A stretch of 64,000 nt of DNA, from NCBI GenBank assembly GCA_038064855.1, contig JBBTSE010000002.1, forward strand, positions 72,815-136,814, written 5' to 3'. The notes under the pieces are model-generated. The model worked only from the letters and a program-made list of their open reading frames with translations, did no database searches and was not told the DNA's origin. This DNA comes from Patescibacteria group bacterium. Lineage in GTDB: Bacteria > Patescibacteriota > Minisyncoccia > Ryanbacterales > GWA2-47-10b. Below, piece after piece: positions 1,623 to 46,662 of the stretch; positions within the stretch are counted from its first letter, which is position 1, and every line of letters begins with the position of its first letter. A program made the translations under genes and the position numbers.

Positions 1623-3734
1623 ATGGCACGCGACTATCCTCTCGATCGTATCCGTGATATCGGCATCATTGCTCATATCGACGCCGGCAAGACTACGGTC
1701 TCCGAGCGTGTTTTGTTTTACACCGGTGTATCGCACAAGATTGGTGAAGTACACGAAGGTGAAGCGGTCATGGATTGGATGGAGCAAGAACGAGAGCGTG
1801 GTATCACAATCACCTCAGCTGCAACTACCTGTTTTTGGCGCCCGACCTATCTTCCGGAAGCGCATAAAAATAAAGATCACGAATATCGTATCAATATCAT
1901 CGATACTCCAGGCCATGTGGATTTTACCGTCGAGGTTGAGCGCTCACTACGCGTACTCGATGGCGGTGTGGTTGTCTTTGATGGTGTTGCCGGCGTAGAG
2001 CCGCAGTCAGAAACGGTGTGGCGTCAGGCAGACAAGTACAAAGTGCCGCGCATGTGTTTCATCAACAAGCTCGATCGCACGGGCGCGTCATTTGAGCGCA
2101 GTTTTAACTCGATCATTGAACGACTCACACCAAATGCAGTCGCCGTACAACTTCCTATTGGTTTGGAAGGGGACTTCGCGGGTGTCATCGATCTTTTGCG
2201 TATGAAGGCATTTCGTTTTGAGGGTGATCACGGTGACAAAATTGTCACCGAAGAAATCCCCGCGAATCTCAAAGCCGATGCTGATCGGTATCGCCATATC
2301 TTGCTCGAAAAGATCGTCGAGACGGATGATGTACTCACCGAACAATATCTCGAAGGCAAAGAAATTTCATTTGATAATTTACAAAAAGCTTTGCGCGCCG
2401 CAACCATCGGGTACAAAATCGTACCGGTATTTTGTGGCTCCGCACTCAAAAACAAAGGCGTACAGCTCATGCTTGACGGTGTGGTAGATTATTTGCCAAG
2501 CCCACTCGATCGGCCACCGGTAGTGGGCAAAGATCCCAACACCGATGCTGATATCATCCGCGAGACATCTGACGAAGCGCCCTTTTCAGCGCTTGCGTTT
2601 AAGTTGCAGACTGATCCCTTTGTAGGTCAGCTGACTTATTTTCGTATCTATTCGGGTGTTATCGAGGCGGGTTCGTATATTTACAACGCGACCAAAGATC
2701 AAAAAGAGCGCGTAGGCCGCATCTTGCGCATGCATGCAAACCACCGCGAAGAAGTAAAAGAAATGCACGCAGGCGAGATTGGCGCCATCGTAGGTCTCAA
2801 ATCAACTACTACCGGTGATACGCTCACCGATCCTGAGCATCCAATAATCTTGGAGCGCATCATATTCCCCGAACCTGTTGTAGACCTCAAGATCGAACCA
2901 AAGACCAAAGTAGACCAAGAGCGCATGGGCTTCGCACTCAAGCGCCTTTCCGAAGAAGATCCGACATTCCGCATCAGTAGCAATGGCGAGACCGGCGAGA
3001 CGATCATCTCGGGTATGGGTGAATTGCACCTCGAGATTCTTGTCGATCGTATGCGCCGCGAGTTTAAGGTTGAGGCCAATGTCGGCAAGCCGCAGGTAGC
3101 GTACAAAGAAACCATCCGCAAAAAGGCGGAGGCGGAGGGCAAGTACATCAAGCAATCAGGTGGTCGCGGTCAGTACGGCCATGTGCGCCTTCGCGTTGAA
3201 CCAAACGAAACCGGCAAAGGTTTTGAATTTATCAACGAGATCAAGGGTGGCGCGATCCCCCAAGAGTTTATCCCCGCTGTACAAAAAGGTATCCGCGAAT
3301 CACTCGATCGCGGTGTGGTTGCGGGCTTCCCGATTGTGGATGTCAAAGTGGCACTCTACGATGGCTCATACCACGATGTAGACTCAAACGAAGCGGCGTT
3401 TAAGATCGCGGGTTCTATGGGCTTCCAAGAGGCCGCCAAGCGCGCCGATCCCGTACTGCTCGAGCCAATCATGAAGGTAGAAGTTATCGTACCCGCAGAC
3501 TTCATGGGTGAGGTGACGGGCGATATCAACTCAAAGCGCGGACGCATCGAGCGCATGGAAGACCGCCTCAACCTCAAAGTTATCGACGCCAAAGTGCCGC
3601 TCTCTGAGATGTTTGGTTATGTGACCAATTTACGATCACGCACCGAAGGACGCGGGTCATATACTATGGAATTCTCTTCATACGAAGAGGTACCAAAAAA
3701 TGTGTCGGCAGATATTATTGCTGGTAAAAAGTAA
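1623..3734 (+). CDS. fusA: Elongation factor G
   Basis: 703 aa with [10 protein letters not shown]1 motif, DTPGHVDF and NKLDR motifs, and the EF-G C-terminal domains. It sits in the conserved str operon position. Confidence 0.97.
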
Positions 3735-3751
3735 ATATATATCTGAACAAA

Positions 3752-3782
3752 AAATGCCTTTCGGGGCATTTGTTTGTTTTGC
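3752..3782 (+). terminator. Rho-independent terminator after fusA
   Basis: AAATGCC-tttcgg-GGCATTT stem followed by GTTTGTTTT. Confidence 0.6.
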
Positions 3783-3835
3783 ACAGGAGTCTTGTCAAAA
3801 TGATTTGCTTTGAGTAGAGTAGAGGAGAAGCACCT

Positions 3836-3901
3836 CGTACATGGGGACTCACAAGAGTCCCAATGTCGTACGTGGAGACTCACAAAAGTCTCCCCAACAT
3901 G
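3836..3901 (+). repeat. Two tandem ~33-bp units, each a hairpin, with compensatory stem changes (possible structured RNA)
   Basis: cgtacatGGGGACTCacaagaGAGTCCCaatgt and cgtacgtGGAGACTcacaaaAGTCTCCccaacatg. The stems differ between the copies, but both arms change together. Confidence 0.45.
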
Positions 3902-4001
3902 AAGGAGGTTAGGATGAGGCAGAAGTTCGTCAACTGCCAGCGCAGAGCCGGCCCGATCTAGGCACGACCCCCTCCTCAACAGTCGCTACGGCGACACCCC
4001 C

Positions 4002-4040
4002 CGGCGGAGTCCCTCATGGACTCCGCCGATTTCTTTTTTA
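4002..4040 (+). terminator. Strong rho-independent terminator in the fusA-tuf spacer
   Basis: CGGCGGAGTCC-ctcat-GGACTCCGCCG perfect 11-bp stem followed by ATTTCTTTTTTATTT. Confidence 0.7.
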
Positions 4041-4067
4041 TTTGATTTTGAGGTATATACTACATAC

Positions 4068-4190
4068 ATGGCACACGAACCTGAAGATGCTGGCGCACGC
4101 GAGGTAGATGGCGATTTCTTCTTTGCCGAAGAGGTGTTGGCCGAAGATCTCGAGAGGGTAGAGGCCACAGCCGACGACCTTCCATTATAG
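4068..4190 (+). CDS. Possible 40-aa highly acidic small protein (MAHEPEDAGAREVDGDFFFAEEVLAEDLERVEATADDLPL)
   Basis: ATG-initiated ORF not in the supplied track because it is under 60 aa. It lies between a terminator and the tuf promoter and is GC-rich. Coding status is uncertain. Confidence 0.25.
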   Translation: MAHEPEDAGAREVDGDFFFAEEVLAEDLERVEATADDLPL

Positions 4191-4212
4191 GGAAAGCCCC
4201 AAAGCTCCCTAT

Positions 4213-4241
4213 TTGACAGGGGAGGATATTTTCACTATCAT
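4213..4241 (+). promoter_or_regulatory. Sigma70-like promoter for tuf (TTGACA-17 nt-TATCAT)
   Basis: TTGACA at 4213-4218, 17-nt spacer, TATCAT at 4236-4241, about 42 nt upstream of the tuf ATG. Confidence 0.55.
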
Positions 4242-4283
4242 GGGCGTTATCTAATAATTACTCGTTTTAAACGCTTTTTCACT

Positions 4284-5480
4284 ATGGCAACGGAAAAATT
4301 TGACCGTTCAAAGCCGCACCTCAATGTGGGAACCATTGGTCATGTCGACCACGGAAAGACCACACTGACGGCGGCAATCCTCCATTGCTTGGCACTCGCC
4401 GGAAACAAGGTGCGTGTTGAGGATGTGAGCCAGATTGACAACGCACCCGAGGAGCGGGCGCGTGGTATTACTATTGCACTCCACCACTCAGAGTATGAGT
4501 CGGCAAAGCGCCACTACGCGCACATTGATGCACCTGGTCACGCAGATTACATCAAAAACATGATCACCGGTGCCGCCCAGATGGACGGCGCAGTGCTTGT
4601 GGTAGCCGCCACTGACGGCCCTATGCCACAGACGCGTGAGCATATCTTGCTCGCAAAACAGGTTGGCGTACCTACGATCATCGTATTTCTCAACAAGTGC
4701 GATGCAGTAGACGATCCAGAGCTTATTGATCTCGTCGAACAAGAAATTCGCGAGCTTCTCACCAAGTATGATTACCCAGGTGAAACGACCCCGATCATTC
4801 GTGGGTCAGCGCTCAAGGCACTTGAGGGCAAGACTGTTGATGATCCTGCGGTCAAAGCAGTACTTGAGCTTGCAAACCAGCTTGATAACTATATTCCTGA
4901 GCCAGTTCGCGACCTCGAAAAGCCATTCTTGATGCCAGTAGAAGATGTGTTCTCTATTGAAGGACGCGGTACTGTCGTCACCGGTAAGATCGAGCGCGGT
5001 CAGGTAAAGGTGGGCGAGGAAATTGAAATCATCGGTATCCGCGACACCCAAAAGACGGTCGTCACTGGTATTGAAATGTTCAACAAATCTCTTGACGAAG
5101 GTCGGGCAGGCGACAACGCAGGTCTCCTCCTTCGTGGTCTCAAAAAAGAAGATGTTGAGCGCGGTCAGGTTTTGGCGAAGCCAGGATCAGTCACCCCTCA
5201 CACCGAGTTTGAGGCAGAGGTATATATCCTCACCAAAGAAGAAGGCGGACGCCACACGCCATTTTTCGCGGGCTACAAGCCACAGTTTTACATTCGCACC
5301 ACTGATGTGACCGGCGAGGTAACCCTTCCACAGGGCACCGAGATGGTTATGCCAGGTGATACGATGAAGTTCCAAGTAAAACTCGTACAGCCGGTAGCTT
5401 TAGAAGAAAAACAGCGCTTTGCTATCCGCGAGGGTGGTAAGACTGTCGGTGCTGGTGTTGTTACCAAAATCACCAAGTAA
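4284..5480 (+). CDS. tuf: Elongation factor Tu
   Basis: 398 aa with [18 protein letters not shown] and NKCD motifs, essentially canonical EF-Tu. Confidence 0.98.
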
Positions 5481-5503
5481 TATAATCCTTTACTAGATAT
5501 CAA

Positions 5504-5836
5504 ATGGCACGAGCAGCAGAAAAAACTCCAACCGCGACCAAGCTCCGCATTCGCATCCGCGCGTATGACAACAAGGTCATCGACGCGTCGGTCAAGCAGA
5601 TTGTAGAGACCGCGCGCAGGTATGGGGGCGAGATTGTAGGGCCGGTGCCGTTACCGACAGAAATCCGTAAGTACACGGTAAACCGCTCAACCTTCGTGCA
5701 TAAAAATGCCCGTGAGCAGTTTGAGATGCGAGTGCATAAGCGCATCATCGATATCAAGAACCCAACGCCCAAGATCATCGATGCGCTTACCAACCTCAAC
5801 CTTCCCGCCGGTGTTGATGTCGAAGTAAAGATGTAA
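5504..5836 (+). CDS. rpsJ: 30S ribosomal protein S10
   Basis: [40 protein letters not shown]... is a canonical S10. Confidence 0.95.
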
Positions 5837-5855
5837 AAAGGGTTCTGCCCTAAAC

Positions 5856-5882
5856 CAAAAACCGCCCTCGGGCGGTTTTTGG
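5856..5882 (+). terminator. Rho-independent terminator after rpsJ (copy 1 of a duplicated element)
   Basis: AAAACCGCCC-tcg-GGCGGTTTTTGG. The identical ~27-mer recurs at 6412-6440. Confidence 0.65.
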
Positions 5883-5894
5883 TATACTGTAAAC

Positions 5895-6143
5895 ATGAGA
5901 TATATTTTGTCGCCCCATGCAAAGTTGCGCATGAAGGAGCGATCGATACAGCAGAGTCTTCTTGAGGGAACTCTGGCGAATCCAACAAAAGTATTATATG
6001 ATGCAAGAGGTAGATTAATGTTTAAAAAACTCTATAAAAAGCGGCATACAACGAGACTATTGATAGTTGTTGGTGAAAAAGTAAAAGACACACTGCGCGT
6101 TATTACGGTTATAGAAACATCTAAAATTAAGAAATATTTATGA
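5895..6143 (+). CDS. DUF4258-family small protein (putative toxin-like partner of DUF2283)
   Basis: SPHAKLRMKERSI...LLIVVGEK...LRVITVIE matches the HAxxRMxERgI...lHvVv...viTvY pattern of DUF4258. It overlaps the next gene by 4 nt. Confidence 0.6.
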   Translation: MRYILSPHAKLRMKERSIQQSLLEGTLANPTKVLYDARGRLMFKKLYKKRHTTRLLIVVGEKVKDTLRVITVIETSKIKKYL

Positions 6144-6379
6144 ATAAACAACAAGGAAAAATTTCGTACGATCGAGGAAGTAGAGTGCTTTCTCTCGCCG
6201 TAGGTAAAGGCAAAAGCGTTGATTCTGATATCAGGGGCAATGTGGTCATTGATGTTGATAAAAAAGGCAATCCGGTACGCGTAGATATCCATAGTTTTAG
6301 TTTTGATGCTTTTCGTGCAGGCAAGGGCAAACTAGAACATTTCCTCGGTTCCAAGGCCAGGGTTGTCCAGTTGAGGTAA
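6140..6379 (+). CDS. DUF2283-family small protein (putative antitoxin-like partner)
   Basis: GKISYDRGSRVLSL...VVIDVDKKGNPVRVDI matches the kIsYDkeaDvLyI...iDld.eGrlvGiEI pattern of DUF2283. Confidence 0.6.
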   Translation: MNKQQGKISYDRGSRVLSLAVGKGKSVDSDIRGNVVIDVDKKGNPVRVDIHSFSFDAFRAGKGKLEHFLGSKARVVQLR

Positions 6380-6411
6380 TCTAACTATATTGGCAAGGAT
6401 TCTGTTCTATC

Positions 6412-6440
6412 AAAAACCGCCCTCGGGCGGTTTTTGGTTT
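6412..6440 (+). terminator. Rho-independent terminator (copy 2 of the duplicated rpsJ terminator)
   Basis: CAAAAACCGCCCTCGGGCGGTTTTTGG identical to 5856-5882. A downstream ...GGTATACTG... segment is also shared. Confidence 0.6.
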
Positions 6441-6798
6441 GAGGTGGTATACTGACAAAAGCATGAATATCTATATAAGGATTATTTTGTGGGGGCTACT
6501 TGTTTTTTGGCTGGTCGGTTCTGCTGTCCTATTGCCTAAATTTTATTGCGGAGTTGGGAACGCAGGCAAAGCTGGGTCAGCTGTTTTTAATCAGAGTGAT
6601 CCAAATTTTCGGCAACACAGTAAGGTGATTTTTGATGACTGCTCGTATCCAGCAGTTTTCAAAATCCTTCTTAAGAGGCGCTTGATTCTAGACTATATGC
6701 TCGGTGTTATTGGGTTACCATTAATTCTCATCTCACTTTTTTATGGCGGTCAATTTCTTTATAAGAAAATCTTTCGAAAACAATATGACCACAAATGA
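6439..6798 (+). CDS. Hypothetical small membrane protein
   Basis: Hydrophobic helices in the translation (IILWGLLVFWLVGSAVLL; VIGLPLILISLFYGG) and no recognisable family. Confidence 0.45.
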   Translation: MRWYTDKSMNIYIRIILWGLLVFWLVGSAVLLPKFYCGVGNAGKAGSAVFNQSDPNFRQHSKVIFDDCSYPAVFKILLKRRLILDYMLGVIGLPLILISLFYGGQFLYKKIFRKQYDHK

Positions 6799-7237
6799 AT
6801 TTACAAAGCCGGAGAATTTGGAAAAGTATTCTTTTCTCTGGTCAGAGGCGCGGCTTTTGGTAGCTGCCGTAGCGTTGTTCGCGGGCGGTATTCCAGCAGT
6901 GTATTTATTGCCGATTCCCTACCTATTTGTAGGTTTAGTAAGTACTCTCCTCACGCTCTCGTGGCTTGTTTCGGGCGCGGCATCAGCGTATCTTGGCTGG
7001 CGCTGGTATACGGGTGGGCAAAAAGTATTTGGCAAAAAAGATACGCGTGATACTGTCGCTTTTTTTGTCAGCGTAGTGTCAGGTATCAATCTCGGGCTCG
7101 TTCCAATTTTAGGCAACAATATTGGTATGAGTATCGCGTGGGGCGGATTTGTCTTTACCGTGACCGCTATTTTATATGTCGTTGCCGCAGTACATCTCTG
7201 GATGCGCTGGAACGCGCATGGCAAAAAAGTTTTTTAG
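6785..7237 (+). CDS. Hypothetical membrane protein (4 predicted TM segments)
   Basis: Start taken at the MTTNEF ATG to minimise overlap with the previous gene. Multiple hydrophobic helices. Confidence 0.45.
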   Translation: MTTNEFTKPENLEKYSFLWSEARLLVAAVALFAGGIPAVYLLPIPYLFVGLVSTLLTLSWLVSGAASAYLGWRWYTGGQKVFGKKDTRDTVAFFVSVVSGINLGLVPILGNNIGMSIAWGGFVFTVTAILYVVAAVHLWMRWNAHGKKVF

Positions 7238-7262
7238 AAATAAATCGCATACAAAGAAAATT

Positions 7263-7301
7263 CCCCAGTCACCGTGATGGTGACTGGGGTTTGCCGTTTG
7301 G
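7263..7301. terminator. Bidirectional-looking terminator hairpin between convergent genes
   Basis: CCCCAGTCACC-gtgat-GGTGACTGGGG followed by TTTGCCGTTTGG. Confidence 0.55.
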
Positions 7302-7322
7302 CATGCTCCGTTATACGCAGAG

Positions 7323-7697
7323 CTAGTGGGGGAGAGCGTAGGCTCGCACGGTGTCGGTGAGCTCGTTGGGCACGCCCGATGACTTCGGTACGAACGCCAT
7401 AGCTCCCAGCTTCACCGCCGCCTCGGCGATGCCAGTCATCGTCTCGCGTGAGTAGATGATGATGGGCATCTGGGGGTGTGTCTCGCGCATGCCCGAGACG
7501 AGCTGCATGCCGGGCCGAAACCCTCTGCCCGCCACAATCTCGATGACCATGATGTCAGGACGCTCTTCGTTTGCGATGACTCGCGCCTCCGCAAAGCTGT
7601 CTGTCTCGAGCAGTACTGCGTCCGGTTCGGCGTCTTTGAGCTTCTTGCGTACGCGTGCCCGATCCTCGGCACTTTCGTCCACGAGTAGTATCTTCAT
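7323..7697 (-). CDS. Single-domain response regulator (REC/CheY-like), GC-rich orphan
   Basis: MKILLVDESAEDR...DIMVIEIVAGRGFRPGMQL...MPIIIYS is a receiver-domain pattern with D and K positions. GGAGG lies 12 nt upstream of the MKIL ATG. GC is clearly higher than the surroundings. Confidence 0.7.
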   Translation of the reverse strand: MKILLVDESAEDRARVRKKLKDAEPDAVLLETDSFAEARVIANEERPDIMVIEIVAGRGFRPGMQLVSGMRETHPQMPIIIYSRETMTGIAEAAVKLGAMAFVPKSSGVPNELTDTVRAYALPH

Positions 7698-7865
7698 GGG
7701 TTGGTACATTCCTCCTTCTAATAATAAAAAATACCCCAAAACCTTTAAAGAGTCAATGTTTTGATGGGTAGACTCGTCCCACTCTGGACAGCTCTTTTTC
7801 GTTGTGCTACAAAGGGGTCATGTTTCTCTGGTGATTTCCCCCCAGATAGTGACGGTAAGGCCTAG

Positions 7866-7888
7866 CCCCGCCGTGCGGGGTGTTTTAT
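7866..7888 (+). promoter_or_regulatory. Terminator-like hairpin in the 5' leader of the rplC operon (possible attenuator)
   Basis: CCCCGC-cgt-GCGGGG followed by TGTTTTATT, ~35 nt upstream of the rplC ATG. Confidence 0.35.
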
Positions 7889-7921
7889 TACCTGATGGGA
7901 ACAGCTCCATAAGCGGGGTAT

Positions 7922-8464
7922 ATGAAAAAATTCATCCTCGGTAAAAAGCTCGAAATGAGCCAAATATTCAAAGACGACGGCACAGTAATCCCTGTGACCG
8001 TCATTCAAGCTGGCCCCGTCGAGATCTCTCAAGTAAAGGGCAAGGAAAAAGACGGTTATGAGGCAGTACAAGTCCTTTTCGGCAAAACTCGCAAAGAATT
8101 TCGTACGGAAGATTCATACGAAAAAGGCGGCAAAATCGATGTTTCGGTTTTTGCGGAAGGGGATTTTGTAAAAGTATCAGGCACCATGAAGGGTCGTGGT
8201 TTTCAAGGCGTGGTCAAGCGCCACGGCTTCAAGGGTGCTCCTAAGTCCCACGGTACCAAGCACGCCCACCGCGAGCCGGGTTCAATCGGTGCAGTATGGC
8301 CTCAGCGCGTACTCAAGGGTACTCGTATGGGTGGTCGTATGGGTGGTACTCGTATTACCGTAGAAAATCTGATGGTCGCCAAAGTCGATGCTGAGAAAAA
8401 CTTACTGTATGTACGCGGCGCGGTTCCGGGCGCTCGTGGTACACTCTTGGAAATTTCTGCATAA
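7922..8464 (+). CDS. rplC: 50S ribosomal protein L3
   Basis: GTMKGRGFQGVVKRHGF...GGTRITVENLMVAKVD is an L3 signature. Confidence 0.95.
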   Translation: MKKFILGKKLEMSQIFKDDGTVIPVTVIQAGPVEISQVKGKEKDGYEAVQVLFGKTRKEFRTEDSYEKGGKIDVSVFAEGDFVKVSGTMKGRGFQGVVKRHGFKGAPKSHGTKHAHREPGSIGAVWPQRVLKGTRMGGRMGGTRITVENLMVAKVDAEKNLLYVRGAVPGARGTLLEISA

Positions 8465-9124: not shown

Positions 9125-9505
9125 ATGGCACTCCTCCCCTTTTTAAAGAAAAAAGAAAAAATAGAAAAACATGATCACGAAGGTCATGACCATGATCACG
9201 CCGAGCAAAAACCTATGACGCGTTTTGAGGGTGTTGAGCGCGCGGTACTTATCGCTCCGCATGTTACCGAGCGCGCACGCCAGCTCTCTGAAGTCGGTCA
9301 GTATGTATTTCGTATTGCTACGACAGCCAACAAACAAGCAGTTCGTAAGGCAGTCGAGCGCGCGTACAAAGTGCATGTTACCGGTGTCCGTATTGTGACT
9401 GCGCATGAAAAACCACGCCGCCGTGGGTTGACGGTGGGTGTTAAAAGAGGGTATAAAAAGGCGGTGGTGGCACTCCGCAAAGGCGAGGCCATCGATATTT
9501 TTTAA
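9125..9505 (+). CDS. rplW: 50S ribosomal protein L23 (with a possible His/Asp-rich N-terminal extension; alternative start at 9215)
   Basis: The L23 core starts at MTRFEGVERAVLIAPHVTERA. The upstream in-frame ATG adds KKKEKIEKHDHEGHDHDHAEQKP. Confidence 0.85.
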   Translation: MALLPFLKKKEKIEKHDHEGHDHDHAEQKPMTRFEGVERAVLIAPHVTERARQLSEVGQYVFRIATTANKQAVRKAVERAYKVHVTGVRIVTAHEKPRRRGLTVGVKRGYKKAVVALRKGEAIDIF

Positions 9506-16245: not shown

Positions 16246-17505
16246 ATGGCAAATATGTGGCAGGCACTCAAAGACAAGGATTTACGCAGACGCATCCTCG
16301 TCGTGCTCGGATTTTTGGCTTTCTTTCGCTTTCTCGCCATTATTCCTATACCAGCTTTTGATCCACGGATTCGACGCGACCTCTCTGATAGTAACTTTTT
16401 AGGTCTTCTCAATATTTTTTCCGGAGGCGCACTCGACAATGTCTCGATTGTGATGCTTGGCGTCGGGCCCTATATCACCGCGTCTATCATCATGCAGCTT
16501 TTCACTATGATCTTTCCTTCACTCAAAGAGATGTATCAAGAAGACGGGGAGGCAGGCCGCAAAAGGTTCAATCAGTATTCGCGCCTGCTTGCGGTTCCTC
16601 TCGCGTTTCTCCAAGGATACGCGCTTTTGGCGCTTTTGGTACAGCAAAATCAGATTGGTCAGCTGGGTGGTTTTGATTTGTTTACCAATTTGATAGTGGT
16701 TACCGGAGGCGCAATCTTTCTTATGTGGATTGGCGAGGTGGTATCCGAATATGGCATCGGCAACGGTATCTCACTTTTGATTTTTGCTGGTATCGTAGCA
16801 GGCGTCCCCTCGAGTATTGGGCAGACACTTTTTGCCTATGATGCTTCACAATTACCGACTATCCTCGCGTTTTTGATTGCAGCACCCCTCATCATCGCGG
16901 GCACTGTTATCATTACCGAGGCAGAACGACCGATCCCAATCTCGTATACCAAGCGTGTGCGCGGCATGAAGATGTATGGTGGTGTTTCGACCTATCTTCC
17001 ACTTCGTGTAAACCAAGCTGGCGTAATTCCAATCATTTTCGCGATCTCGATTTTACTTTTCCCGTCACTCATCGGTCAGATGTTTGCATCGTCAAAATAT
17101 CCGGCGATCGCGAGTGCGGGAGCCACAATCTTGAACATTGCAAGCAATCAATGGATTTATGGGGGCGTGTATTTCTTGCTGGTATTTTTGTTTACTTACT
17201 TCTATACATCGGTGACATTTGATCCTGACGCCATTTCTTCAAACTTGCAAAAACAAGGCGGGTTCATTCCCGGCATTCGTCCTGGTCCTTCAACCTCTGA
17301 CTACCTTCGCAAACTCATTACACGCATCACGCTTGTCGGCGCACTTTTCTTGGGCGCTATCGCGGTTTTGCCGCTCGCCATGCAAACGATCACCGGTACG
17401 CAAGCGCTCGCTCTTGGTGGTACCGCGCTCCTCATCGTAGTCTCGGTGGTTATTGAAACCATCAAGCAAGTGCGCGCGCAGATGACTCTTCGAGAATACG
17501 ACTAG
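16246..17505 (+). CDS. secY: Preprotein translocase subunit SecY
   Basis: 419 aa with 10 TM helices, LGVGPYITASIIMQL and other SecY motifs. Confidence 0.95.
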   Translation: MANMWQALKDKDLRRRILVVLGFLAFFRFLAIIPIPAFDPRIRRDLSDSNFLGLLNIFSGGALDNVSIVMLGVGPYITASIIMQLFTMIFPSLKEMYQEDGEAGRKRFNQYSRLLAVPLAFLQGYALLALLVQQNQIGQLGGFDLFTNLIVVTGGAIFLMWIGEVVSEYGIGNGISLLIFAGIVAGVPSSIGQTLFAYDASQLPTILAFLIAAPLIIAGTVIITEAERPIPISYTKRVRGMKMYGGVSTYLPLRVNQAGVIPIIFAISILLFPSLIGQMFASSKYPAIASAGATILNIASNQWIYGGVYFLLVFLFTYFYTSVTFDPDAISSNLQKQGGFIPGIRPGPSTSDYLRKLITRITLVGALFLGAIAVLPLAMQTITGTQALALGGTALLIVVSVVIETIKQVRAQMTLREYD

Positions 17506-17567: not shown

Positions 17568-17840
17568 ATGAGTAAAGGTGCGGAGCGGGCAATCTTGTTA
17601 AGTATAGGCATTCTTGCAACCCTCAGCGTTTCTTTTTGGATGGGGTTGTTCGCTAGTATCATCCCGATTGGCACTTCTTTCGGAATATACTTTGCAAGTA
17701 AGGCGTCTCAGTCAAAAGAAAATCCTCAACGAATAAAATATATCGTGCTATTTATTCTTTCCTTGTTATTCATGGTATTGGGCGTAGTGTTCATTGATAT
17801 GTATATTGATACTAATTTTTTAGGACGCAACTTCCCTTGA
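17568..17840 (+). CDS. Hypothetical small membrane protein
   Basis: Three hydrophobic helices and no family match. Confidence 0.4.
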   Translation: MSKGAERAILLSIGILATLSVSFWMGLFASIIPIGTSFGIYFASKASQSKENPQRIKYIVLFILSLLFMVLGVVFIDMYIDTNFLGRNFP

Positions 17841-17864: not shown

Positions 17865-18113
17865 TTGTGTATGAAAACAAATATTGTGGGGTTTAAGGAG
17901 TTACGAGAAGATGCTGATAAATACATCGCTCAAGTTCAAAAGGGGCGATCTTTTGTGGTAGTTCGCCGCTCAAAGCCTATTTTTAAAATGGTTCCTGTTG
18001 ATGAATGGGGCGATGAAGGTGTGTGGGAGACAGTCGCTGATTTCCGCACGCTTCATCCAAAAGGCGTTCCCGCAACCGATGTATTGAGAGTGTTGAAGAA
18101 GCTTCGTGGATAA
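17865..18113 (+). CDS. Putative type II antitoxin (Phd/YefM-like)
   Basis: ELREDADKYIAQVQKGRSFVVVRRSKPIFKMVPVDEW resembles the Phd/YefM pattern (EL...GEPVVITRRGKPVAVLVS). It overlaps the downstream RelE-like gene by 8 nt. Confidence 0.5.
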   Translation: MCMKTNIVGFKELREDADKYIAQVQKGRSFVVVRRSKPIFKMVPVDEWGDEGVWETVADFRTLHPKGVPATDVLRVLKKLRG

Positions 18114-18345
18114 GATTGAAAAGTTTCTACGAAAACTTTCCCAAAAAGAGCGGGAAGTTGTCAATCATATCATCGAAAAAGTGTTATCAAACGATACTCG
18201 TGATCTTGATGTAAAGAAACTGAAAGATGAATACAAGCTTTTTCGTGTACGAAAGGGAAATATCCGTATAGTATTTTTTCAAGACGATTCCGTCACGCGC
18301 ATCGTGTATATTAGGCGTCGTGGCGAGAAGACCTACAATTTGTGA
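18106..18345 (+). CDS. RelE/ParE-family toxin (GTG start)
   Basis: ...YKLFRVRKGNIRIVFFQDDSVTRIVYIRRRGEKTY matches the RelE core (yrlRvGdyRiiY...il.i.hRkd.Y). Confidence 0.6.
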   Translation: MDKIEKFLRKLSQKEREVVNHIIEKVLSNDTRDLDVKKLKDEYKLFRVRKGNIRIVFFQDDSVTRIVYIRRRGEKTYNL

Positions 18346-38672: not shown

Positions 38673-39059
38673 TCATTTCTCCCTCGCCTTTGGTAGGGAG
38701 TTTTGCTTGCCCTGAGGTTGCTCAAGAGATTTTGTAAGCTGCCCGTTCCATCCTCCGAGCATCTTGCCGATTTCATCTATTTTTACCGAAAGCGCGGTGT
38801 ATTTTTTGTTATCAAGAGATTTCGTTTCCCACAAAATCATAAGCAGTATCTTGAGCGTATCTGTTTTGCGTATCGCAAGACGAACATAGGGTCTTTTTTC
38901 CTCTCGTGCAAGGAAGCTTGCACTTGCAATCGCTTCGATACTTTCTACAAAGAGATTATCGATCCTTTGGCCAAGAGAATGTCGGTGAAGTTTTGGTAAC
39001 GCTTGGTAGTATTGATACCACAGCAAATATGTATTTTTTAGCTTCTGTAAAATTGGCAA
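38673..39059 (-). CDS. avd: Avd-like accessory variability determinant (four-helix-bundle / 23S rRNA IVS protein family)
   Basis: LPKLHRHSLGQRID...EAIA...EKRPYVRLAIRKTDTLKILLMILWE...KIDEIGKMLGGW matches the four-helix-bundle family and bAvd-like C-terminal (E)IG(K/R)xLGxW. TTG start. Opposite strand to TR and RT. Confidence 0.7.
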   Translation of the reverse strand: MPILQKLKNTYLLWYQYYQALPKLHRHSLGQRIDNLFVESIEAIASASFLAREEKRPYVRLAIRKTDTLKILLMILWETKSLDNKKYTALSVKIDEIGKMLGGWNGQLTKSLEQPQGKQNSLPKAREK

Positions 39060-39096
39060 AACCCGTTGGGGGGGGGCTTACCTGGTTAGTATTTTT

Positions 39097-40101
39097 ATGA
39101 AAAGGCAGTTCACTCATACCTATAATGATATCATCTCTCTCGAAAATCTTCTTGAGGCGTGGAGGGAGTTTATCAATGGAAAACGCGGGCGCATTGATGT
39201 CCAGTTGTTTGAGCGCGATTTAATGAAAAACATTATCGCGCTTCATATAGATCTTGTAGGTAAGACTTACAAACATTCATCTTACTACGCATTTAACATC
39301 TCAGATCCCAAACCAAGAAATATACACAAAGCGAGTGTCCGAGATAGATTACTGCATCATGCGTTATACAGAAAACTATACCCATTTTTCGATAGGACTT
39401 TTATAGACGATTCATATTCGTGCAGACTGGGTAAGGGAACGCACAAAGCGATGAATAGATTCCGCTCTTTTGCGCAAAAAACATCAAAAAATTATACCAA
39501 AACAGTTTGGGTTCTGAAGTGTGATATACGGAAGTTCTTTGCCTCAATAGATCAAGAGGCTCTCATTAAGGTTATCGAGAGTTATGTGCCAGACAAAGAT
39601 ATTATTTTGCTTATCTCCGAAGTTGTTGGTAGCTTTCACTCAACGCAAACTGGTGTCGGGCTGCCTCTTGGTAATCTCACAAGCCAGCTTCTCGTAAATA
39701 TTTATATGAACGAGTTTGACCAGTTTATGAAACATAAGCTTAAAGCAAAATATTATATTCGCTACGCCGATGATTTTGTTATTTTTTCTCAAGACAAAAA
39801 ATTGCTTGAAAGTATGATGTTACAAATTCAAAGTTTTCTTTGGGAGCGGCTACGATTGCAACTCCACCCCGATAAGGTATCGATACGCACGGTGGCCTCC
39901 GGCGTTGATTTTCTTGGGTGGGTGTATTTTCCAGATCATCGAGTGTTACGAACGGTTACAAAAAAGAGGATGTTTCGCAACATTGGTATAAGCCAAGGCA
40001 AAAAAGAAACGGTACAGTCGTATCTAGGAACGATACGTCATGGCAATAGCCAGAAGCTTAAAGGCAAAATTGAAGGTTTGATAAATAAAATTTCAGTATA
40101 A
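39097..40101 (+). CDS. DGR reverse transcriptase
   Basis: RT motifs: LLEAWREF N-terminus, GLPLGNLTSQLLVNIYMNEFD (LGxxxSQ, DGR hallmark) and YIRYADDFVIF (YxDD). Confidence 0.88.
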   Translation: MKRQFTHTYNDIISLENLLEAWREFINGKRGRIDVQLFERDLMKNIIALHIDLVGKTYKHSSYYAFNISDPKPRNIHKASVRDRLLHHALYRKLYPFFDRTFIDDSYSCRLGKGTHKAMNRFRSFAQKTSKNYTKTVWVLKCDIRKFFASIDQEALIKVIESYVPDKDIILLISEVVGSFHSTQTGVGLPLGNLTSQLLVNIYMNEFDQFMKHKLKAKYYIRYADDFVIFSQDKKLLESMMLQIQSFLWERLRLQLHPDKVSIRTVASGVDFLGWVYFPDHRVLRTVTKKRMFRNIGISQGKKETVQSYLGTIRHGNSQKLKGKIEGLINKISV

Positions 40102-46307: not shown

Positions 46308-46309
46308 TG

Positions 46310-46662
46310 TGGAAGTGGGCGGAATTGAACCGCCGTCCGAAAGTTCTTCTCAATAAAAATTTATACAGGCGTACTTAGGACGAACCCAAGAGTTTGCTCG
46401 ATTAGTTTCGCGCGCGTGTATCGAGCATGATGCGCACTAGCTGAGGATTATAACACCGGCATTCCACGCACTCAGCGGTTGCGGACCGATGCTCTGGCGC
46501 ATAGTGGCCAGAGAAACGCCTACGGCTTAGGCAAAAGCCATTGCCGGTTGGCGGTTAAATAAGTTTGCACTTATTGGCGTGTGGCATTTTTGGAAGAGGT
46601 GACCACACCTGCTCTTGCCTGATTTTCAAAGAGTCGAGACCCCGTCGAGGCCTGTCACTCCC
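46310..46662 (-). ncRNA. ssrA: tmRNA (ssrA), about 353 nt
   Basis: The 3' end is tRNA-like: T-stem-loop GGCGG-UUCAAUU-CCGCC plus acceptor CACUUCC-A. The 5' GGGAGUG pairs with it. An internal Ala-initiated tag-like reading frame ends ...AMAFA-TAA. It lies immediately downstream of smpB. Confidence 0.8.

Follow-up and report, generated by a model that had tools for sequence, protein, structure and literature searches.

The window analyzed here is a stretch of 64,000 nucleotides (nt) from a Patescibacteria group bacterium (contig JBBTSE010000002.1, positions 72,815 to 136,814). It belongs to the 97.7-kb ENA contig Hain_H51_01um_R3_54 from Hainich groundwater, and its lineage is Candidatus Ryanbacteria (Patescibacteria, Candidate Phyla Radiation, CPR), with an L3 protein 98% and 97% identical to those of two Candidatus Ryanbacteria genomes. 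Genes in this part of the window run in the order rpsL, rpsG, fusA, tuf, rpsJ and, after a 2085-nt gap, rplC, rplD, rplW, rplB, rpsS and onwards. The gap contains five genes, one on the opposite strand. We focused on two of these, an overlapping DUF4258-DUF2283 pair resembling a toxin-antitoxin module, which lies between two copies of a terminator-like hairpin. The central features, in window coordinates, are as follows:

5504..5836, + strand: rpsJ (ribosomal protein S10), 23 nt after tuf (Pfam Ribosomal_S10, 1.9e-34)
5838..5889, + strand: repeat copy 1, the native rpsJ 3' flank, comprising spacer, hairpin (core 5856-5883) and TGGTATACT (5880-5888); the hairpin is single-copy after rpsJ in the related loci L004 and L003
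5895..6143, + strand: DUF4258 toxin gene, 82 amino acids (aa) (Pfam DUF4258), with its ATG 6 nt after a -10 hexamer
6140..6379, + strand: DUF2283 presumed antitoxin gene, 79 aa (Pfam DUF2283), overlapping the toxin stop by a 4-nt ATGA
6395..6454, + strand: repeat copy 2, the duplicated rpsJ 3' flank (core 6411-6438), then TTTGAGG and TGGTATACT (6445-6453); the L005 orthologue, 2619-2695, keeps 27 nt of the rpsJ coding end

The initial annotation reported a duplicated 27-mer, CAAAAACCGCCCTCGGGCGGTTTTTGG, and placed its second copy at 6412-6440. The duplication and the first position held, with exactly two plus-strand occurrences in the window (5856-5882 and 6411-6437), which corrects the second position; zero were expected by chance (100 shuffles). 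The exact repeat is 28 nt long (5856-5883 vs. 6411-6438), and a weaker likeness ~16 nt upstream of both cores (AAGGRTTCTGYYCTA) gives 87% identity over 46 nt (5838-5883 vs. 6395-6438). The motif said to follow both copies, GGTATACTG, was indeed found after each, at different spacing: at 5881-5889 it overlaps the end of copy 1, and at 6446-6454 it lies 10 nt further on after copy 2. In both places, it is part of an identical extended -10 motif, TGGTATACT. Only two genes occupy the 527 nt between the repeat cores.

The repeated hairpin, which in copy 1 begins 19 nt past the rpsJ stop codon, forms a stem of 13 bp with a U tract after it (-29.6 kcal/mol, z -5.5). Its CCGCCC/GGGCGG stem is lengthened by A/U pairs and runs into UUUUU, the form of an intrinsic terminator. 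Because A and U tracts stand on either side, termination would be possible in both directions, and the hairpin can be read as a predicted bidirectional rho-independent terminator. An Rfam scan of 5400-8100, which covered the hairpin and the region upstream of rplC, returned nothing near any gathering score.

Both proteins passed Pfam thresholds in a hidden Markov model search, in agreement with the families first named for them. The 82-aa protein scored 29.5 bits with DUF4258 (PF14076; cut-off 25), its residues 5-73 aligning to profile positions 1-70 of 71, and carries the HAxxRMxERxI motif, which is invariant within the subfamily. Its partner scored 24.9 bits with DUF2283 (PF10049; cut-off 23), with residues 7-51 aligning to profile positions 1-46 of 49. 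The DUF4258 protein has the fold of the RelE/ParE superfamily (BECR), a compact alpha/beta arrangement of N-terminal helices on a four-stranded antiparallel sheet, and the model of the partner (predicted local distance difference test, pLDDT, 86.8) is a five-stranded sheet with C-terminal helices. As in type II systems, the genes are small, adjacent, and co-oriented, and their pairing is conserved: DUF2283 follows DUF4258 in about 33 of 36 loci, and the remaining DUF4258 loci are truncated where their contigs stop. Searching with a profile of the partner returned 671 proteins; among those with a source name, nearly all are from Patescibacteria. The fold, the pairing in about 33 loci, and the purifying selection on both genes described below uphold the view of the pair as toxin-antitoxin-like. 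The further statement that such a pairing had been proposed before could not be confirmed, as no paper mentioning both DUF names was found in the literature searched.

Public gene calls (L001 and L002) start the toxin too late, at a length of 70 or 41 aa instead of 82, probably because no Shine-Dalgarno sequence precedes the true start. This truncation accounts for the missing Pfam annotation in those records. The plus-strand units examined, namely the pair and mem1, a small membrane-protein gene that follows it, each open with a hairpin plus TGGTATACT, and the start codon comes 6-9 nt later. At this spacing, the mRNAs of the pair and mem1 should be leaderless or nearly so, and that of the DUF4258 toxin is probably leaderless.

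An L3-based scan with one genome per species yielded 80 loci for comparison, 70 of which contain both rpsJ and rplC. Among these 70, the rpsJ-rplC gap had a median of 163 nt and exceeded 600 nt in 10, with 8 of the 10 coming from Patescibacteria-type loci. A tree of rpsJ and the rplC-rpsS genes arranged the window and three relatives as ((window,L003),L005),L004. Their junctions, and those of two outgroups, are organized as follows:

L004, gap 689 nt: rpsJ, the identical 27-mer once, response regulator, rplC; no pair
L003, gap 1847 nt: rpsJ, a single hairpin whose loop differs, a copy-2-like promoter, three membrane genes, response regulator; no pair
L005, gap 5427 nt: rpsJ with a different terminator, two other open reading frames (ORFs), the pair, further genes
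L006 and L007 (outgroups), gaps 507 and 296 nt: no ORFs, no pair

The rpsJ-rplC junction is a variable islet in this genus (296-5427 nt across relatives). With one identical hairpin and no pair, L004 represents an empty site, and its positions 1600-1646 align to copy 1 almost perfectly and to copy 2 at 89%. L003 also has one hairpin and no pair. The junction comparison thereby bears out the suggestion that the duplication is the footprint of an insertion. The pair recurs in L005 (83% and 89% aa identity), where the DUF2283 gene is followed by GCGGTGTTGATGTCGAAGTAAAGATGTAG, a 27-nt copy of the rpsJ coding end, then by the spacer, then by the hairpin, making 77 nt of copied rpsJ flank. Rather than the same genes without a duplicated flank, L005 therefore has the pair with a downstream repeat that reaches 27 nt into rpsJ. 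On its upstream side, the L005 pair is preceded by 71 nt copied from the 5' end of mem2 (a membrane-protein gene) and, at a greater distance, by a 43-nt copy; another ORF follows a degenerate hairpin-plus-TGGTATACTG unit. These duplicated rpsJ and mem2 fragments around the L005 genes indicate that the islet consists of cassettes separated by duplicated junction fragments.

Five hairpin copies could be compared: window 5856-5883 and 6411-6438, L004 1615-1647, L005 2662-2695, and L003 at about 1067-1100. Both 13-bp stem arms are identical across all five against 10-18% genome divergence, and the loop alone varies (TC, TT, or CAT). This conservation is stricter than a terminator role would seem to require.

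Sequence divergence dates the pair relative to its neighbors. Between the window and L005, synonymous divergence (dS) was 0.66 and 0.97 for the two genes, compared with 0.92 for rplC, 0.80 for rplD, and 0.83 for mem2. The match indicates that the pair was present before the window and L005 split. The ratio of nonsynonymous to synonymous divergence (dN/dS) was 0.15 and 0.05, and both genes are under purifying selection. L003, the closest relative of the window in the tree, is without the pair, and loss is the simplest account; after recombination between the repeats, one hairpin followed by the copy-2 flank would remain, exactly the state of L003. The guanine-plus-cytosine (GC) content of the two genes (35.7% and 42.9%) is low beside that of the window (48.7%) and rpsJ (53%), indicating a foreign origin.

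We consider it probable (roughly 0.7) that 5895-6379 is a horizontally acquired addiction-type cassette that was inserted, with target duplication, downstream of tuf-rpsJ in a Ryanbacteria ancestor. The cargo would comprise a DUF4258 toxin, which has the RelE/BECR ribonuclease fold, and downstream of it the DUF2283 partner. The target would be the rpsJ 3' flank, consisting of the hairpin, a spacer of ~16 nt, and originally the last ~27 nt of rpsJ; the target copy in the window measures ~50 bases. One hairpin copy would still terminate tuf-rpsJ, and the other would terminate the cassette and insulate the next genes. The toxin would presumably cleave RNA, and the partner would neutralize it by binding. 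If the repeats recombined and the pair was lost, the toxin would be freed, and for that reason the module may resist deletion. As candidate routes, the cassette could have entered by Campbell-type integration of a junction-bearing circle, by homology-facilitated illegitimate recombination in the course of natural transformation, or by the filling-in of breaks with a wide stagger.

Read in this way, the event is of a known type with a new cargo (a toxin-antitoxin-like pair) and in a new host group (Patescibacteria). Insertion with long target duplication is reportedly also credited to Nobusato et al. in 2000. It has been described for addiction-type restriction-modification complexes that lack mobility genes and are flanked by variable repeats of >30 bp, often spanning gene starts or stops, with empty sites in related genomes and mostly in naturally competent bacteria; in one published case, a 46-bp repeat overlaps 15 bp of a gene's 3' end (PMC2853133). 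Patescibacteria have been reported as competent and equipped with recombination genes (PMC12455944). We applied the criteria of Furuta et al. 2010 (PMC2853133), and the window cassette agreed with all four. It is a complete module of two genes in an insert of 527 nt (<20 kb) with no mobility gene, and its direct target duplication exceeds 30 bp (46 nt at 87% with a 28-nt exact core; 77 nt in L005). A related genome, L004, has an empty site that aligns to both repeats, and L003 has a single copy too. The likeness to insertions with long target duplication thus extends to the absence of a transposase or integrase, local direct repeats of >30 bp, and an empty site in a relative. Unlike the published cases, the cargo here is toxin-antitoxin-like, the host belongs to Patescibacteria, and the target is the terminator of a ribosomal-protein unit; L005 and another locus of the cassette family, L117, also appear to repeat the process at one site, giving cassette arrays. 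The cassette does not resemble an insertion sequence or transposon, which would have a transposase, terminal inverted repeats, and a short target duplication: no transposase domain was found in it, and the inverted repeats at the insert ends are the palindromic hairpins only.

Several points weigh against an addiction cassette inserted by target duplication. The left junction is not the same in L005 as in the window, which puts the original extent of the duplication beyond reconstruction, and the absence of the pair from L003 could reflect either loss or separate acquisitions. The GGTATACTG motif common to both copies may represent two similar promoters and not part of the duplication. Among homologous cassettes, 17 of 24 are without a flanking duplication. 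With regard to the cargo, the model of the partner has no significant structural relative, and no recognizable DNA-binding or known antitoxin fold was detected in it (RHH, HTH, AbrB, and Phd were considered), so that it differs from the autoregulating antitoxin with a DNA-binding domain that characterizes type II systems. PADLOC, PHROGs, and NCBIfam gave zero matches for either protein, and the pair is not a catalogued defense system or phage family. Toxicity, neutralization, and RNase activity are without experimental demonstration for any DUF4258/DUF2283 pair. A review gives the target of DUF4258 as unknown, with no reference, and lists an A/T gene order for this family (PMC11980606), vs. 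the toxin-first order found here.

Exact look-ups and a metagenome scan for cassette homologues added about 40 further loci. The conserved unit starts ~15 nt ahead of the ATG and ends at the stop codon, and it often includes a -10-like box 6-8 nt upstream. About 22 distinct contexts could be told apart, all in Patescibacteria. Five of these are at ribosomal-protein junctions, namely rpsJ|rplC (the window lineage), rplC|rplD, tRNA-Glu|rplU, upstream of rpsZ-rpsH, and rpsO|pnp, and 10 of the ~22 are ≤180 nt from a same-strand tRNA gene. An apparent tendency of the family to adjoin tRNA and ribosomal-protein genes is statistically visible. The window itself has no tRNA gene in all of its 64 kb. 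The position was initially called highly unusual, but this judgment did not hold, given the recurrence of the family at rplC|rplD, at rpsO|pnp, and beside rplU and tRNA genes, and given a MazEF pair at the same junction in another lineage. In that case (L026, Paceibacterota CTOTU14260), MazE and MazF (Pfam 1.7e-10 and 2.7e-20) occupy 2809-3395 of a 1.7-kb rpsJ-rplC gap, indicating that a different toxin-antitoxin family took this junction independently.

Direct repeats of local sequence flanked 7 of 24 cassettes, compared with 25 of 603 control segments (Fisher p 8.6e-5). They measured 46-194 nt and spanned the start or stop of the neighboring gene. Self-comparison of the rplC|rplD and rplU loci showed no flanking duplication. 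In the rplC|rplD clade, divergence of the pair parallels that of L4, indicating vertical inheritance inside the S10 operon. L117 (190-1680) has an array resembling that of L005: between a HicA toxin cassette and the DUF4258-DUF2283 pair stand three direct copies of a unit made up of a terminator hairpin and a PAP2 gene 3' end. The rpsJ hairpin was considered as part of the mobile cassette and rejected: other cassette loci carry unrelated downstream sequence or other terminators, which assigns the hairpin to the rpsJ target.

Some of these loci showed further peculiarities. The str/S10 cluster of a groundwater contig (L092) holds two toxin-antitoxin modules, an 88-aa gene with a YafQ-family toxin upstream of tuf (378-898) and the DUF4258-DUF2283 pair between rplC and rplD (4965-5449). 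L092 and L093 share a block (Kre9-domain gene, 40-aa ORF, pair, rplD, rplW) at 95% nt identity, which joins rplC in L092 but rpsG in L093, where fusA, tuf, rpsJ, and rplC are missing; the difference reflects either a genuine rearrangement or chimeric assembly. In the Nomurabacteria contigs with an identical DUF2283 protein (L124-L133, ~3240-5400), a tRNA-Arg(gcg) gene follows at a distance of 18 nt in L124, the sole locus of this set that was scanned for tRNAs. Past this point the content differs between contigs, including large serine recombinases in either orientation in L127 and L128, and the site has the look of an active integration hotspot.

The alternative that survives best, although we regard it as unlikely, is that the repeats are the attL and attR sites of an integrative element at the rpsJ 3' end, whose integrase was lost or acted in trans and whose leftover cargo is the pair. 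Direct repeats over a conserved gene's 3' end are characteristic of integrase att sites (a class discussed in PMC2853133), and, as in integrase-made islets at tRNA or conserved-gene 3' ends, the pair stands directly after a tRNA gene or rpsJ and the repeats include the 3' end of the target. A XerC-like tyrosine recombinase is also found near the cassette at the rpsO junction (L113 and L134), and large serine recombinases adjoin it, in either orientation, in L127 and L128. However, neither the window islet nor the 5.4-kb islet of L005 has a recombinase gene, and the insert is only ~0.5 kb. The local sequences that flank the family differ between loci (46-194 nt, taken from 5' as well as 3' ends of genes), arguing that there is no constant attP-like core; none was seen at the cassette boundaries. 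Beyond the tRNA-adjacent cassettes, a search for a duplicated tRNA 3' end gave nothing above shuffled controls, and we rejected classical att-site integration for these cassettes on this ground.

Another possibility, which we consider quite improbable, concerns the cargo. The pair could be an orphan polymorphic-toxin tip with its immunity gene, or could act on the translation apparatus, explaining its neighborhood, rather than being a classical toxin-antitoxin module. Against this reading, the 82-aa toxin is complete, has a conserved start and N-terminus of its own, and is not preceded by a delivery domain, and a structural match to CdiI was below significance. The scattered, lineage-specific distribution and the low GC content are typical of selfish modules.

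It is very unlikely that no insertion took place, with the pair native to the junction, the second hairpin arising by local duplication or terminator convergence, and the pair-less relatives having lost the pair. Terminators of the form CCAAAA-stem-TTTTGG are common in the clade (the L005 rpsJ terminator, L088, and L117), and loss is the most parsimonious account for L003. Yet the repeat cores are identical at 28 of 28 positions, their flanks are alike, and the downstream copy in L005 includes an rpsJ coding fragment. The pair is also absent from L004 and both outgroups, lies 6-13 points under the GC average of the window, and has homologues at many unrelated loci. Finally, short exact repeats can mislead assemblers, but a chimeric join at the repeated hairpin is practically discounted by the identical arrangement of pair and repeats in three independent assemblies from different runs (the ENA contig, Logan ERR3858113, and Logan ERR3858115) and by the orthologous arrangement in four assemblies of a second population, from well H41.

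Beyond insertion with long target duplication, we compared the inserted pair with other known systems. Its closest counterparts are type II systems of the RelE/ParE superfamily (BECR), especially the toxin-first HigBA and BrnTA, with DUF2283 as the partner here. Unlike those systems, expression of the pair appears to be leaderless or driven from the upstream unit. Integron cassettes, which often carry toxin-antitoxin genes in superintegrons, are likewise small, promoter-poor, and tandem at one site, with a repeated hairpin sequence between them. In contrast to integrons, there is no integron integrase, attI, or attC here, no integrase of any kind lies in the islet, and the repeats are copies of the host flank (a perfect terminator hairpin plus gene ends). 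As in the Escherichia coli S10 operon, with its L4-regulated leader, the order rpsJ, rplC, rplD, rplW, rplB, rpsS is kept. Unlike in E. coli, rpsJ is joined to tuf and followed by a terminator, and rplC stands 2.1 kb off, behind an opposite-strand gene and with its own upstream region.

More broadly, DUF4258-DUF2283 could be a transposase-free selfish cassette of Patescibacteria, ~0.5 kb from -10 box to stop codon, that prefers sites downstream of tRNA and ribosomal-protein units, is expressed leaderless from those units, and spreads by inserting itself with duplication of tens to hundreds of target bases. We put this forward tentatively, as a doubtful generalization. If it is true, repeated rounds of insertion would build arrays such as those in L005 and L117. 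In a stronger version, the RelE-like toxin may be functionally tied to expression of the translation apparatus. No paper on toxin-antitoxin modules in Patescibacteria ribosomal-protein operons was found in the literature searched. The window locus would offer a clean, dated case of a foreign addiction-type pair entering the most conserved gene cluster of a tiny-genome bacterium, for which relatives supply both an empty site and a decayed target copy. Insertion with long target duplication, until now described for restriction-modification genes, would also gain a toxin-antitoxin-like cassette as cargo and, as hosts, Patescibacteria, which have few classical mobile elements yet are thought to take up DNA naturally. 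The enrichment of the cassette near tRNA and ribosomal-protein genes may offer a clue to the persistence of selfish modules in streamlined genomes. For ribosomal-protein phylogenomics, in which the rpsJ-rplC junction is assumed to be syntenic, these lineages present a variable islet. The linkage is sometimes fully broken, as in L030, L039, L043, L044, and L045, where there is no rpsJ within 5-6 kb upstream of rplC.

The remaining features around the pair are as follows:

4213..4241, + strand: promoter-like site TTGACA-17-TATCAT upstream of tuf (consensus scan, 11/12 matches; putative function)
6463..6798, + strand: mem1, small membrane-protein ORF, 111 aa (ORF list), a variable cassette slot in relatives
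6785..7237, + strand: mem2, membrane-protein gene, 150 aa, common to L003 and L005
7263..7289, strand not assigned: predicted bidirectional terminator hairpin between mem2 and the response-regulator gene (hairpin detection and fold)
7323..7739, - strand: stand-alone response-regulator receiver gene (Pfam Response_reg 1.6e-12)
7740..7921, + strand: conserved region upstream of rplC, containing a terminator-like hairpin, 7865-7881 (nt identity to L003, L004, and L005)
7922..8464, + strand: rplC (ribosomal protein L3), first gene of the downstream ribosomal-protein cluster (Pfam Ribosomal_L3)

The promoter-like site at 4213-4241, which has a terminator-like hairpin upstream (4002-4028), is the probable start of a tuf-rpsJ transcription unit; from its near-consensus form and the 23-nt spacing of rpsJ from tuf, tuf-rpsJ looks like a unit of its own that ends at hairpin 1. 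On the other side of the gap, the region of ~180 nt upstream of rplC is 92-94% identical to L003, L004, and L005, compared with 85-91% for rplC itself, and its hairpin lies 40 nt before the rplC start codon; it could be a ribosomal-protein leader or attenuator. The initial annotation had located the pair in the S10 operon leader. Instead, the site is downstream of rpsJ, between rpsJ and rplC (genes one and two of the canonical operon), in a region (5400-8100) with no Rfam leader family; tuf-rpsJ already ends at a predicted terminator, and rplC has its own conserved putative leader. Nor is the pair a lone insert, since the 2085-nt gap also holds two membrane-protein genes and the opposite-strand response regulator, and its content varies. 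The response-regulator gene is resident at the junction in all four Ryanbacteria loci (window, L003, L004, and L005). No family match was found for mem1 in our searches, and its slot is filled by unrelated ORFs in L003 and L005; for mem2, fragments of the 5' end are duplicated twice in L005.

Elsewhere in the window, a second toxin-antitoxin-like pair (17865-18345) lies within the ribosomal-protein cluster, between secY (16246-17505) and adk. Its antitoxin is an 82-aa protein of the Phd family (TIGR01552, 23.9 bits vs. a cut-off of 20.8; Pfam PhdYeFM 1.5e-6), and an overlapping 79-aa ORF has a weak Gp49/HigB-like match (E 0.008). The GC content of this pair is 38-44%, and a 90-aa membrane ORF (17568-17840) precedes it. 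The L23 protein (9125-9505) has an N-terminal extension rich in histidine and aspartate (KHDHEGHDHDHAEQ) that is not present in typical L23. A transfer-messenger RNA (tmRNA) gene with the tag ANLFNRQPAMAFA occupies 46309-46662 on the minus strand. There is also a probable diversity-generating retroelement at 38673-40101, in which a bAvd-like gene (38673-39059, minus strand, Pfam 2.4e-12) adjoins a reverse transcriptase (39097-40101, RVT_1 1.7e-25).

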